A stretch of DNA of 64,000 nt, taken from NCBI GenBank assembly GCA_964016885.1, contig OZ024745.1, positions 41,416,001 to 41,480,000 on the forward strand, given 5' to 3'. The stretch comes from Eledone cirrhosa. Taxonomy: Eukaryota. The notes below the pieces were generated by a model. That model saw only the letters and a program-made list of their open reading frames with translations. It was not told the DNA's origin and searched no databases. Below, one piece after another: positions 2,360 through 61,493 of the stretch. Each line of letters starts with the position of its first letter. Positions within the stretch are counted from its first letter, which is position 1. Both the position numbers and the translations under genes were made by a program.

Positions 2360-2930
2360 TATAAGTATGTATACGTACATACTATATGTATACAGACGTA
2401 CAGTAGTATGTATATATATATATGCATACATGCACACATATATATATATGTACGTATGGATTCACCGAACATTTATTATAATGCTCGGTGTGTTTGTAAA
2501 CAAACATCCCGAATTAAGCCGTACAGTGTCTAGCAACCATCGTTGCTCATTTGTTCAACACTGACAAAGGAATGCTGTACTAGTTTCAAGCTTATTAGCT
2601 ATCATCAGCAACGTATACCTTCCTGCCAGATGATTGAACGTCTGAAAGTATATACTTTCCTTATGCATATTAACGGCTGAGCAGCCTAATTTGCATATCG
2701 AGTGAGTTAGTCGGCCGGGGGTACCGAAACGACAAACGGAAAAAATAAAACGAAATTTCATTTCTCACTCTTAGTACGGCTGTTACTTAAATATAAGTAT
2801 GTATACGTACATACATATATGTATACAGACGTACAGTAGTATGTATATATATATACATACATGCACACATATATATATATGTACGTATGGATTCACCGAA
2901 CATTTATTATAATGTTTGGTTTGTTTGTAT
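2360..2930 (-). mobile_element. Family A non-autonomous HHR-bearing element (retrozyme/PLE-like), about 1.3 tandem monomers of ~430 bp
   Basis: Homologous to 22690-23215, 26944-27470, 41968-43372 and 60638-61493. Segment 2363-2500 is repeated at 2795-2930. Contains an HHR at 2574-2612. Confidence 0.8.
2574..2612 (-). ncRNA. minimal type I hammerhead ribozyme (family A)
   Basis: Revcomp GTTG-CTGATGA-T AGCT AATA AGCT T-GAAA-CTAG-TA-CAGC; stem I GUUG/CAGC, palindromic stem III ACTAGT. Confidence 0.75.
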
Positions 2931-3026
2931 ATCTATAGGTATATAGACGGAGAGAGATAGAGGGAGACGTGTATATATATATACACGTTTATGTATATAT
3001 ATATATATTTATATATATATATATAA

Positions 3027-3583
3027 ATTAGGTAGTAACATGTGCTTATGCCGTATTTGACTAAGTAGAATTAGTCTCTTAGTTGATATTTAAAAAAAAC
3101 TCTCTGAATGGAAAAAAAGGACTATTGACGTACTTGGTACACGAACCCACATCTTTGGTTTGCCGGATCGATGTGTTACCATTACACCAACACACCACCC
3201 ATGCTTCCGTCCATTCAATTAGAAGCTATATAAACATAGCAGGTATATATATATATGTATATGAATAGGGAGATAATACTCATCCTTCTTTCCATTCAGA
3301 GGGTTTTTAAAAACAGACGTTTCTAAATAAAGGCTGCTTTGTGTCTCCCTATTTATATACATATACATCTGCTATGGTTATATAGGTTCTAATGGAATAG
3401 AAGGAAGCATGGGTGCCGTACTGGTGTGATTGTAACATATTGATCTGACAAACCAAACACCTGGGTTCGTGTCCCATGTCCGTTAATACTCATCCTATTT
3501 TTTTCATTCAGAGGCCTTTTTAAAATCCCAACAGACTATTTCTATTTAGTCAAATACGGCGTAAGCACATGTTACTACCTATT
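3027..3583. mobile_element. diverged foldback/MITE-like element with ~220-bp imperfect inverted arms
   Basis: 3027-3250 (taggtagtaacatgtgcttatgccgtatttgactaa...) is the reverse complement of 3357-3583 (...ttagtcaaatacggcgtaagcacatgttactaccta); flanked by (TA)n. Confidence 0.65.
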
Positions 3584-4040
3584 TTTATATATATATTTAC
3601 ATATACATACCACACACACACGCATATATATATATATATATATATATATAGCCGCAACTTGGTCGTGTGTAGCTATATATATATATATATATATATATAT
3701 ATCCTAGATATATTTATTAGTTACATATACACAAACACTTCTATACACACACACATATATATATATATATATATATACGTTTTAATATAGATGAGAATCT
3801 CATCTATATTAAAACTTTTATACTCTGCTATGTATTGAGTACCTTACTTACTGTGGTTACCTCCGATTCAACCCGGAATAACGTAGATATATATATATAT
3901 ATATATCCTAGATATATTTATTAGTTACATATACACAGACACTTCTATACACACACACACACACACACATATATATATATATATATATATATATATACAA
4001 TATATTAATAAATGGAAACTATATTTATAAAACCATAATT

Positions 4041-4103
4041 ATTTTATTATATATATTTCAAGGACAACCAAGGCATTCTTGGTGCGCTTTCATCAGATAA
4101 AAT
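4041..4103 (-). ncRNA. type I hammerhead ribozyme (family C)
   Basis: Revcomp ATTTTAT-CTGATGA-AAG cgc ACCAAG aatgc CTTGGT tgtc CTT-GAAA-TATATA-TA-ATAAAAT. Confidence 0.7.
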
Positions 4104-4189
4104 ACAAGATTTGTGTTATAAATATTGACATAACCGTGGAAAAAAACAACCTTGACGGTTGAAAGTTCACTGGATAGTCACTGGATATT

Positions 4190-4249
4190 TTTTATCTGAT
4201 GAAAGCGCACCAAGATGCCTTCGTTGTCCTTGAAATATATATAATAAAA
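4190..4249 (+). ncRNA. type I hammerhead ribozyme (family C)
   Basis: TTTTAT-CTGATGA-AAG...CTT-GAAA-TATATA-TA-ATAAAA; intact core. Confidence 0.7.
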
Positions 4250-58020: not shown

Positions 58021-58315
58021 TGAAAGTAGGTATAAAATTATTAATTTTCACTATACTTTTATAGCTGTCTCGGCGGCCTAGTTGGACGAATCATAGACGG
58101 TGGTGATCCTGGTGTGAAGTTCGATCCTGGTCGGGTGTACATTTCCCGGTAAACATTTTCAGTTTTTTTATATGGGATGTAAAATAAAAACTAAAAAAAG
58201 ATTACATGTACCTCTTGACTGGGATTTAACCCAAAGCCAGGATCTCTATCGTCTCTAGTACCTACTGCTAGGCTACTGAGACATGATGAAAATTCATACC
58301 TATAAACCTACTTTC
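58021..58315. mobile_element. foldback element whose two arms each contain a tRNA-like (A/B box) sequence
   Basis: Termini TGAAAGTAGGT/ACCTACTTTCA; + arm GTCTCGGCGGCCTAGTTGG...GTTCGATCC; - arm GTCTCAGTAGCCTAGCAG...GGTTAAATCCC. Confidence 0.55.
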
Positions 58316-58653
58316 AAAATTTTCAAAACAAAATGATGTGGTGTTGTTCATGTCTTTCTGAATGTTATTGCTCTTACTTAAGGTCGACTTCTAAATCATT
58401 TGGGTGTTCCATAAACTACATCCTCGTTTTGTTTCTCATCTATCTAGACTATATTTTAACCTGTAATCCATGTTTCATTTCTGTTGCACCTCATTTCTCC
58501 TCTCTCTCTCTCTCTCTTTCTCTCTGTGATTTGGGCTTACTTTATTCATATATATATATGTTTTTGCATGTCAGATAGATTCCAACCTACTTGGCATTAA
58601 ATATATATATATATATATATATATATATATATATATATATATATATATATATA

Positions 58654-58890
58654 CAGTGGCGGACTGGGTCTAAAAATATTTGTTGCCAGGATATGAAGGG
58701 GGGGGGCACCTAGATATAGACAGCTATCATTTAATTTTTATCATGAATAAATGACATTTTCAAAAAATACATAAGTGGAAACAATACAATGCAATCAAAT
58801 TTTTGCAGAAAATTATCTTACCTTCTCCAATAGAAAACCTAATGTATTTTGTGAAATCCAGAGACTTTCAATAATGACCTTTCGTCTTTC
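58654..58890 (+). mobile_element. possible hAT-type DNA transposon terminus
   Basis: Starts CAGTGGCGGACTG, a 13-mer also found at 58010; no matching right TIR seen. Confidence 0.35.
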
Positions 58891-59035
58891 ACACTCACTC
58901 AATATAAATATATATATATATATATATATATATATATATATATATATAATAAAAAATTGAACAGGGACAGAACAGAGAGGCAGTACGACAAATGTTTATT
59001 AGATTCACGCTCAGGAGAGTGGGGGGTAGGTGGAG

Positions 59036-59066
59036 GACGACGTTTCGGGCATAAGCCCTTCTTCAG
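59036..59066 (-). ncRNA. hammerhead core motif of PLE type, stem I not formed (family G)
   Basis: Revcomp CTGAAGA-a-GGGC ttat GCCC-GAAA-CGTCG-TC. Confidence 0.6.
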
Positions 59067-60637
59067 GTAAGAGTTCAAAAGGTGTGTAGGGGAGTGGTGG
59101 AGAGACATATAGCGAAAGGAAACGGTGCGAATGAAAAATTAACAAATACAGACAAAAATATAATAAATAATAAATAAAAATAAAGCATGATCAAAATACA
59201 AGGAATGAGAACATTTAAAAATAAAGGCATGATCAAAATAAACTGAAATTAAAAGGGGGGTAAACAGGTGGTGGAAGGGTGTGGGGTGAGTAGAGGTGGA
59301 GGCGGGTGGAGTAGGGAGAGGGAGACGGGGTGTCCGAGCGGGGAGGGCTGAAGGTGGTGTGTGTGGTTAGGTGTGCGTGTGTGTGTGTGTATGTGAAAGT
59401 GAGGGTTGGGGGAAGAACGGGGTTGCATGTTCAGGAAGGTGTGTGTGGGGGGTGTTTTTGTGTGTCGGAGGGTCTGTGCGTGTGTGGATAGGGGGTGGGG
59501 GAGAGGAATCAGGGGGCTGAGGGTGTAAATATGTGGTGGGAAGCACGTATATATATGGGTGAGTGTATGTGTATGAAACAACTGGTAAGTCATGAAAAAG
59601 TCAGGTTTTTAATATAAATATTCTCAGATTCCATATTATGAGTTTATTCCTCTATTTATTCATTTGTAAATGCACCTATATATATATATATATATATATA
59701 TATATATATATATATATATAATTTTACTGCAAAGATGTGCGGTTTGACAAGATCTGCGTAACTTAAATGATGTAATATATTGCCTCTCACGGATATAACA
59801 TAATGGATGTGTTTAAATTGTGTTATTAGTTTGGATTCAATTAGAATTAATCTGTACATGGCTTATTAAGTGCCTCTCAAATTTTCATTGAATATAGTTT
59901 CGTCGTGGAAACTGGACAGAATTAGCATTCAACTGGAAATGTCTTCTTTGTGCCGGGGAGAATGTCAGGTCAAAAGCTTCATTTATTATCAATTCATAAC
60001 ATAGAATATATCCCTTAGAAATACGAACATGCGAGTGTGTATGTATGTATTCAGAAAGATAGCGGACGAGAGGGTGTCTATATGTATATATATATATGTG
60101 TGTGTGTGTGTGTGTGTGTGTGTGTGTGTGTGTGTGTGTGTGTGTGTGTGTGTGTGTTGTGTGTGTGTCTGTGTGTGTGTCTTTTGCATGTGTGTGTGTG
60201 TGTGTCTTTTGCGTGTGTGTGTATTGAAGCTACTACATCTATCACTCGCAATGTTGGCCTGTATCATATTTACACAAAAATGTTGAGATGTTATGCAGTC
60301 GCGAGCAACACAAACTCCTTCGCCACCCACATTTCCAGGATCCAGTGGAATATGTATGAGGTAACATATTGAAGGGACCTTCACCAGCAACGGGCTTGTA
60401 ATTCGAGGGATCAACCTCGACACGAAAAGAAGTAAAGTAGGTCTCAGTGAGATTGGAACACAAAATACCGGGAACTACTATCCAATGTACTAACAACGCT
60501 GACATATCGGCTTCCTATCCACATATGAATGTACATATACAAACACACACGTACACACACACACTCACACGCACACCCAAACACGGGCGCGCGCGCGCAC
60601 ATACACACATATTTATATATATTTATATATATATATA

Positions 60638-61493
60638 AATGGAAAAATTGGAATTTCATTTCTCACTCTTAGTACGGCTGATACTTAAATATAAGTATGT
60701 ATACGTACATACATATATGTATACAGACGTACAGTAGTATGCATATACATACATACATGCACACATATATATATGTACGTATGGGTTTACCGAACATTTA
60801 TTAAACACACGAATTAAGCCGTACACTGTTCGGCAACCATCGTTGCCATTTTGTTCAACACTGACAAAGGAACGATGAACTAGTTTCGAGCTTCTTAGCT
60901 GTCATCAGCATTGTATACCTTCCTGTCAGATGATTGTACGTTTGAAAGTATATACTTTCCTATTGCATATTAACGCCTGAGCAGCCTAATTTGCATATCG
61001 AGTGAGTTAGTCGGCCGAGCGCACCGAAGACGATAAATGGAAAAAATGAAAAAATGAAATTTCATTTCTCACACTTAGTACGGCTGATACTTAAATGTAA
61101 GTATGTATACGTACATACATATATGTATACAGACGTACATACACACATATATAACGTTCAATCATCTGGCAGGAAGGTATACGATGCTGATGACAGCTAA
61201 GAAGCTAGAAACTAGTTCATCGTTCCTTTGTCAGTGTTGAACAAAATGGCAACGATGGGTGCCGAACACTGTACGGATTAATTCGGGCTGTTTGTTTACA
61301 AACAAACCGAACATTATAAAATATTTTCGGTAAACCCATACGTACATATATATATATGTGTGCATGTATGTATGTATATACATACTGCTGTACGTCTGTA
61401 TACATATATGTATGTACGTATACATACTTACATTTAAGTATCAGCCGTACTAAGAGTGAGAAATGAAATTTCATTTTTTTCTTTTTTTCCATT
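60638..61493. mobile_element. Family A HHR element, partial tandem plus inverted copy
   Basis: 60638-61140 (about 1.25 monomers), then inverted 61153-61493; HHR at 60872-60914(-) and 61181-61223(+; ACGATG-CTGATGA-cAGCTaagaAGCTa-GAAA-CTAG-TT-CATCGT). Confidence 0.85.

Follow-up and report, generated by a model that had tools for sequence, protein, structure and literature searches.

A hammerhead retrozyme family with a U6-class promoter motif and Penelope-type insertions in the genome of Eledone cirrhosa

A stretch of 64,000 nucleotides from Eledone cirrhosa (assembly GCA_964016885.1, contig OZ024745.1, positions 41,416,001 to 41,480,000; the whole stretch is called the window below) was found to contain several copies of a short repeat, here named family A, in which each full unit carries a hammerhead ribozyme motif and no open reading frame (ORF). 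The locus raises the question of how such an element is transcribed, which enzyme moves it and from which template it is copied. Family A was found to be real, abundant and recently active, and on its testable features it is a retrozyme of the type without long terminal repeats (non-LTR). Its ORF-less tandem units contained a motif of the U6 class and were inserted with the signature of Penelope-like elements (PLEs). On balance it is likely that family A is transcribed from its own motif, cleaved as a dimer, circularised and copied into (TA)n by the enzyme of Hydra-clade PLEs.

The exact core pattern gave 13,048 matches in the 3.0-Gb genome against 0 for the reversed control, so that the matches are not due to chance, and 18,158 matches were obtained with a second pattern placed immediately downstream of the cleavage site; both are counts of units, not of loci, and are lower bounds. 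The loci that were read comprised the 28 best BLAST loci and 60 stretches covering 60 of the 61 clusters among the first 100 core matches, followed by 14 more family A loci and 33 picked by the body pattern alone. Also read were 20 sister-family loci, 26 PLE loci, the host small nuclear RNA (snRNA) loci and 60 targeted stretches. The complete monomers (n=42) were 404-556 nt long, with length differences arising from internal TA, and the tandem arrays reached 9 units, each with a type I hammerhead. At least three subfamilies were found, 10-15% apart. The GC content was 36-39%, and the longest ATG frame was 38-49 amino acids (aa) in the sense and 56-110 aa in the antisense direction, the latter running through the TA tract, which bears out the absence of coding capacity claimed when the family was first noticed (the original prediction). 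The features of a retrozyme, namely short tandem units (about 150-450 bp in non-LTR retrozymes), no coding capacity, low GC and a conserved core with covarying stems, were all present. The circular monomers were predicted to fold well below shuffled sequences (z of -6.8, -9.3 and -9.3, and of -7.7, -4.2 and -1.7 for the antisense circles; 25 shuffles each).

For the insertions, 188 arms were mapped and 24 were dropped for low complexity or a position at the locus edge. The 3' end of 147 of the remaining 164 arms, and of 46 of the 49 arms in an independent set, fell on either of two constant positions separated by about 50 nt, called long and short here. By a crude test, 122 of these 147 canonical ends were found in (TA)n; most ends lay within (TA)n, where a target-site duplication, which exceeds 4 bp in non-LTR retrozymes when there is one, cannot be delimited. 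Among 45 head-to-head pairs both ends were canonical in 34, with 31 long+short, two short+short and one long+long combinations (p=8e-7). The independent set, with 12 head-to-head pairs, gave long+short in 9/9, which brings the total to 40/43. The 5' ends were scattered over the whole unit, and 23 of the 164 arms crossed at least two ribozyme sites. Copying of family A begins at one of two fixed internal sites, passes ribozyme sites and truncates randomly. According to the literature, Penelope insertions show 5' truncation, partial tandems, an inverted 5' copy, a tail at one end and a (TA)n target (PMC8557442), and the Penelope tail corresponds in vitro to the stretch between two start sites of the reverse transcriptase (RT) (PMC11167929). 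All five of these insertion features were found in family A. The reading of the 3' ends as termination points of RNA polymerase III (Pol III) was excluded, as the long end lies about 7 nt beyond the T6 run.

Every copy listed by the original prediction was recovered near its position, and the larger copies were mapped, as it had claimed, as partial tandems and inversions beside (TA)n, in the form of a 1.3-unit arm and head-to-head arms. The features of the window, with PSE for proximal sequence element and family A understood throughout, are as follows.

2352..2929, minus strand: single arm, about 1.3 units long, with its 3' end in (TA)n at the short site; PSE at 2685-2697, core at 2579-2608, U.U at 10.1-11.1, GUA cleavage site
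22690..22784, minus strand: the tail, a short arm in inverted orientation whose 3' end is at the long site
22735..23221, plus strand: main arm of slightly more than one unit, the reference copy for landmarks; short 3' end at about 23215 in (TA)n
22845..22864, plus strand: two T runs (T6, T4) flanking the long RT start site (about 22858), possible Pol III terminators
22894..22906, plus strand: match to the PSE of the host U6, U6atac and MRP genes, unchanged across subfamilies
22932..22947, plus strand: 16-bp palindrome containing the TATA-like box (22937-22942), 43 nt from the start of the PSE
about 22967, plus strand: transcription start of the reference copy as predicted from the PSE and TATA-like box
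22977..23019, plus strand: minimal type I hammerhead with stem I, core, 4-bp stem II (C.A at 10.1-11.1) and palindromic ACUAGU stem III
after 23013, plus strand: predicted hammerhead cleavage in the reference copy
26944..27475, plus strand: second copy of the 22690-23221 insertion, within a 4.25-kb tandem duplication
41966..43378: young head-to-head insertion, minus arm with long end at 41966, plus arm with short end at 43378
43538..43633 (start approximate), plus strand: scrap from the 3' region of the unit, in (TA)n
60635..61496: older insertion of two head-to-head arms that meet at 61153 and are about 92% identical, PSE at 60985-60997 (minus strand)
2579-2608, 22983-23012, 27237-27266, 42279-42308 (minus), 43047-43076 (plus), 60879-60908 (minus) and 61187-61216 (plus): the seven hammerhead cores

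Around the core the window copies were 82-92% identical. The two arms of the young insertion at 41966..43378 were identical over 354 nt, and both contained an AACG loop and a G12A change that are private to them in the genome. The older insertion at 60635..61496 was found to have two long ends and is an exception to the long+short rule. The copy at 26944-27475 contained no mismatch to 22690-23221 in 532 nt and is not an independent insertion: a single insertion is carried twice by the duplicated 4.25-kb segment, in agreement with the duplicate noted originally. This tandem duplication (19194-27902, 98.95% identical), which could be recent or an assembly duplicate, also contained a minisatellite array of a 65-bp unit at 20182-21246.

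A likely driver was found in the same genome. Young PLEs gave 69 scored matches at 97-100% identity, many of them with intact 821-aa frames, and their proteins contained the motifs RW, DKT, CxCX5C and CxxC/CxH without CCHH, the combination that defines the Hydra clade (PMC8557442). From these motifs the young PLEs are assigned to the Hydra clade; on the same evidence Neptune was replaced as the candidate driver. Two Hydra-type proteins were not recognised by Pfam, and the Atlas clusters for the Hydra-type proteins were HTH_animal, GIY-YIG and RVT_1. The Hydra elements were found to have the layout pseudo-LTR (pLTR), ORF, pLTR and a ribozyme of their own that differs from that of family A. One young Hydra-type element contained two 3' ends about 95 nt apart, combined as long+short in 5/5 simple two-arm loci.

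Direct junctions between the two kinds of element, with no TA spacer, were found at three loci. In L057 the partner of a family A arm was a Hydra copy, truncated at its 5' end and ending at its short site, the other arm being long. In L053 an arm from the family A short site ran into the Hydra ORF and the opposite arm was a Hydra long end. Each of these two loci contained one long and one short end across both elements. In L006 the partner of family A was a second Hydra family, represented by its 3' region. The most natural reading of these chimeras is template switching during a single reaction. A candidate chimera in L037 was ruled out, being an insertion into a TA loop. At L013:1419 and L023:1905 the 5' ends of family A arms were joined to a different hammerhead family, in its ribozyme region; these may be further template switches.

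The 5' junctions (n=215) led into family A itself in 133 cases, into microsatellite in 37 and into other flanks in 45, and an ORF flank repeated at one and the same point, as an ORF-bearing parent would leave, was not found among them; family A is not always attached to a PLE ORF. No pLTR homology of family A to the sampled Hydra elements was found, and 20 Hydra loci gave neighbouring insertions only. The two-site 3' ends, the long+short rule, the (TA)n target, the Hydra chimeras and the lack of a parent support the originally proposed non-autonomous family mobilised by PLE RT. Other PLE remains were also present in the window. The palindrome at 3990-4301, which contained PLE-type hammerheads at 4096 (minus) and 4196 (plus) with stem III ATATATAT, is likely a pLTR stub from another PLE family. 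Broken PLE ORF pieces of two families were found by tblastn at 28489-29178 and 37769-39671, and the 3' region of the second Hydra family, with a hammerhead-like motif in which A replaces U4, was found at about 61570-61990 (minus).

In the hammerhead itself, the stem I pair counted over 115 loci was G-U in 87, A-U in 7, U-G in 10 with both sides changed, C-G in 1, G-C in 1 and mismatched in 9, which upholds a stem I that varies while staying paired. The mismatch at 10.1-11.1, which had been entered as a caveat, was indeed present, but as a fixed family trait and not as decay: it was U.U in 61 and C.A in 39 of 106 locus counts, distributed by subfamily. U.U at this position was also found in other hammerhead families of the genome, and sister family D contained G-C there together with a compensatory change in stem II. 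The stem II loop varied as described, except that AACG was private to the 42-43-kb insertion and the commonest young loop was AACA. The mutation of G12 seen in that copy was likewise found: G12A with AACG gave two genome matches, both of them arms of this insertion, which rules out a propagating G12A subfamily.

The core had been expected to be more conserved than its flanks. In 97 units chosen irrespective of the core, changes common to at least five units were found in 0/11 catalytic columns and 22/103 other columns (Fisher p=0.12 for the core alone, 0.002 for core and promoter columns together), and rare changes occurred at about 1% across all columns. A comparison with Rfam, proposed as a check, did not return the ribozyme: no hammerhead was present among the best 150 of 388 window matches, nor on 22860-23130 at E<=10. 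The ribozyme call consequently rests on the motif and its conservation. A palindromic stem III is the form that requires dimers (PMC4209133, PMC6765202).

Array units were found to be 97.2% identical within arrays and 91.2% between arrays, and the nearest neighbour of 24 of 27 monomers lay inside the same array. A rare change (non-C at +14; 149 genome matches) was present in all units of five of the six arrays picked for it, with 6, 6, 3, 3 and 2 units. In L263 one extra change ran through the 6 units and also the inverted arm; it was absent from the sister array L262. Rare changes common to all units of an array are predicted by rolling-circle copying of a monomer, which these arrays suggest. 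A monomer bottleneck would most simply account for the array-wide changes and the identical arms, with gene conversion as the alternative, and circular RNA may be the intermediate. In X4 and X5 (contigs of unspecified kind) one contig each, of 470 or 486 nt, was found to wrap round the family A unit. X4 also contained the abundant repeats that lie next to it, which is what traces of genomic DNA would give; these were not present in X5, where a collapsed tandem could give the contig.

The candidate promoter was recognised through the host genes. The three U6 genes, U6atac and RNase MRP were found to contain a common PSE at -77 to -79 followed by a TATA box 47-49 nt later, whereas U1 and U2 contained a different promoter layout, shared by the RNase P RNA gene (layout only, with no spacing datum). 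In family A the PSE was located 89 nt ahead of the core. It was spotted by eye and then tested with a matrix from the five host Pol III genes, on which family A scored 20.4 and the training genes 18.2-21.7; all 129 matrix matches in 1.27 Mb of loci were in family A. Local alignment of the whole host upstream regions with the monomer gave TA-rich noise only. An octamer had first been considered a possible distal element of the vertebrate type; as host U1 and U2 lack it, the host PSE took its place.

The pattern of PSE followed by core gave 32,734 genome matches against 69 for the control and was found in at least five families. The 20 sister loci (L149-L168) contained families D, E, F and G and a doubtful family H, with full hammerheads; D is a distant relative of A, and the other sister families were without clear similarity. 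A TATA-like box was present at 41-46 in D, E, F and G and not in H. Changes shared by at least five units were found in none of the 13 PSE and none of the 8 TATA columns, against the 22/103 of the others (promoter p=0.024). T4 runs were absent from the 292-325-nt bodies of three subfamily monomers, with one in family D, and numbered 2-5 in the 135-nt promoter zone, just before and within it, which is the T-run-free body followed by T runs that a U6-type promoter calls for. The PSE/TATA-like module is quite probably a working promoter, and Pol III is somewhat likelier than Pol II as its polymerase.

Several further observations concern these motifs. The host snRNA loci (L111-L148) contained two promoter layouts, with a distal motif common to them located about -260 to -290, and in the U6 cluster (L127, L128, L130-L132) some copies contained an abundant short repeat between the TATA box and the start. 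Family D formed arrays of 466-469 bp, one with about 30 units, and family E contained several successive PSE-like repeats upstream. A 310-bp tandem hammerhead repeat, family C (L037:6163-8167, L059:4244-5068), was found to contain an ACGCGU stem III and U.U at 10.1-11.1; it contained no PSE, and a motif resembling the host distal element was located directly after its ribozyme.

On the proposed mechanism, the PSE and TATA-like box would direct initiation roughly 10 nt upstream of stem I. The promoter would lie outside its own transcript, and RNA holding the promoter would come only from read-through into the next unit. Two successive ribozymes, paired via the palindromic ACUAGU stem III, would free the monomer, and a host ligase would close the circle. 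The RT/GIY-YIG enzyme of co-resident Hydra-clade elements would copy this RNA into (TA)n, with a second arm from the other RT start site giving the head-to-head inversion. Repeated passage round the circle would yield partial tandems and arrays and would restore a promoter before a full unit.

A number of observations weigh against this cycle, and several of them are shared with rival explanations. The ribozyme is in question where the predicted monomer folds differ from the active hammerhead and the 10.1-11.1 pair is mismatched; minimal PLE-type hammerheads are poor cleavers (PMC4209133), frog dimers were without cleavage in 8/9 cases (Li, Clavereau and Pollet 2026, preprint, bioRxiv 10.64898/2026.07.22.740005), and in vitro insertion did not need cleavage (PMC11167929). 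A pile-up of 5' ends at the cleavage site, first seen in 4/97 units, fell to background genome-wide: 289 of about 18,158 units were without the first base, and truncation accounted for 4 of 40 checked cases, as against 1 of 14 at a control position. With the pile-up gone, cleaved linear RNA is, on these counts, not the usual template. The chimeras number just 3 among 103 sources, a raw count irrespective of PLE abundance, and the 9-unit array L265 was mixed (3/9), so that arrays also evolve locally. The same PLE-mobilised element might have a linear uncleaved multimer as template, with a slow or vestigial hammerhead and arrays homogenised later by unequal exchange or gene conversion. This explanation, rather unlikely overall, gains from the missing pile-up, the arms that span two or more ribozyme sites, the mixed L265 and the alternating variants in L037, the anole PLE that mainly used unprocessed RNA (PMC11167929), and the G12A core found in both arms of a young insertion. 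It is opposed by the private change of L263, found throughout its six units and in its two arms with no other divergence in the insertion, by catalytic positions that are constant across subfamilies and unrelated families, and by the failure of the G12A variant to give rise to any other copy.

The promoter meets objections of its own. The PSE-to-TATA offset is 43 in family A and 41-46 in the sisters against 47-49 in the five host genes, and two sister families contained CATATA. The distal element, present in 3/3 U6 and in the U1, U2 and RNase P loci, was found in no monomer, and is missing also from host U6atac and MRP. The PSE doubles as the 5' arm of a predicted hairpin, which could explain its conservation; a mutated TATA was common to two separate arrays (L262 and L263); and T6-T7 runs lie directly before the long start site, where efficient Pol III termination would block the required read-through. 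A cluster of 5' ends at the predicted start (6 ends in 9 nt against an estimated 2 or so) was set aside, as similar clusters occurred at hairpins. If the PSE match were only a hairpin arm or a relic of a retrozyme expressed through host read-through, as a 2020 review assumes (PMC7761336), the spacing 4-6 nt short, the absent distal element, the hairpin, the two TATA-mutant loci and the spread of family C and autonomous Hydra pLTRs without a PSE would be explained. This is less probable still, for the motif is fixed 86-105 nt before the core in otherwise dissimilar families, both host variants, TTAG and TGAG, are used, the 3' arm of the hairpin varies between subfamilies while the PSE arm is constant, and the predicted transcribed body is without T4 runs. 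It is very improbable that family A is the pLTR stub of a rare, unsampled autonomous Penelope element. In frogs the termini of 24/57 retrozyme families match known elements, of which nearly all are PLEs (Li 2026 preprint), and a rare parent could escape the roughly 140 loci read; set against this are the seamless unit-to-unit junctions, the 215 arms without an ORF flank recurring at a fixed junction, the 49-aa limit of the sense frames, and sampled Hydra elements with a different pLTR, a different ribozyme and no PSE. The retrozyme cycle copied by a Hydra-clade enzyme is preferred to these readings.

Family A resembles the animal non-LTR retrozymes (PMC7229834, PMC7761336) in its ORF-less units of a few hundred bp, its low GC, a single type I hammerhead per unit, the occurrence of dimers to multimers, the strongly self-paired predicted circle and the co-occurrence of PLEs. 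It differs from the coral and mussel retrozymes, with their canonical fast hammerhead (PMC7229834), in its minimal PLE-like form and fixed 10.1-11.1 mismatch, and from the animal non-LTR retrozymes in its two RT start sites, head-to-head arms and snRNA-type promoter motif. RNA and cleavage are demonstrated for the latter (PMC7229834) and predicted for family A; the 2020 review states that retrozymes seem promoterless (PMC7761336). As in the preprint of Li, Clavereau and Pollet, retrozymes appear as passengers of PLE enzymes. In that preprint the PLE link is built on co-occurrence and on homology of pLTRs across 31 vertebrates, 3 insects and 1 coral; for family A it comes from insertion anatomy and chimeras; 'promoter', 'mollus' and 'octopus' do not occur in the main text of the preprint.

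The newt satellite 2 and the Schistosoma hammerhead repeats, which resemble short interspersed elements (PMC6765202, PMC2220036), are likewise tandem repeats with their own promoter in which the upstream unit transcribes the next; the newt promoter is of the snRNA type and used by Pol II, and the schistosome promoter is of the Pol III type. Unlike these, family A contained a host PSE of the Pol III class and not the host U1/U2 layout, and its motif occurs in at least five families and more than 30,000 units tied to a named PLE clade. With the Hydra-clade PLEs (PMC8557442) it shares (TA)n, 5' truncation, partial tandems, an inverted 5' copy, a tail at one end and a hammerhead near the 3' end; it differs in being non-coding, in its tail of about 50 nt (about 95 nt in the Hydra element here) and in being unrelated to the sampled pLTRs. 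In the literature covered, mostly main texts of freely available papers, nothing was found on family A, octopus retrozymes or a U6-class PSE in retrozymes.

A further non-coding element, the palindromic family B, was found in the window at 7580-7950, 43372-43525, 52964-53107 and about 61516-61560. It occupies the same (TA)n sites as family A, to an arm of which it was joined without TA in L080, and a motif scan for hammerheads in family B gave none.

The element class is already known, so that family A is of value for its mechanism and promoter module and not as another hammerhead repeat; the snRNA-type promoter module and the likely identity of the driver are the additions to the original prediction. 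Candidate answers are offered to how an animal retrozyme is transcribed, mobilised and templated: a promoter motif with a predicted start, an intact Hydra-clade enzyme pointed to by the chimeras and the two-start-site rule, and arrays that may trace a monomer bottleneck through a circular template. More broadly, and tentatively, since the chance is put at slightly less than even, self-sufficient retrozymes may have radiated in the genome (five families or more, with over 30,000 units), each with a captured snRNA-class promoter of shortened PSE-TATA spacing, a dimer-gated hammerhead and rolling-circle copying by a Hydra-clade Penelope RT. If this is true, the model in which retrozymes have no promoter would be overturned and newt satellite 2 would become the rule and not an oddity, the enzyme that moves an animal retrozyme would be named, and tens of thousands of potential SNAPc-binding sites would be present genome-wide.

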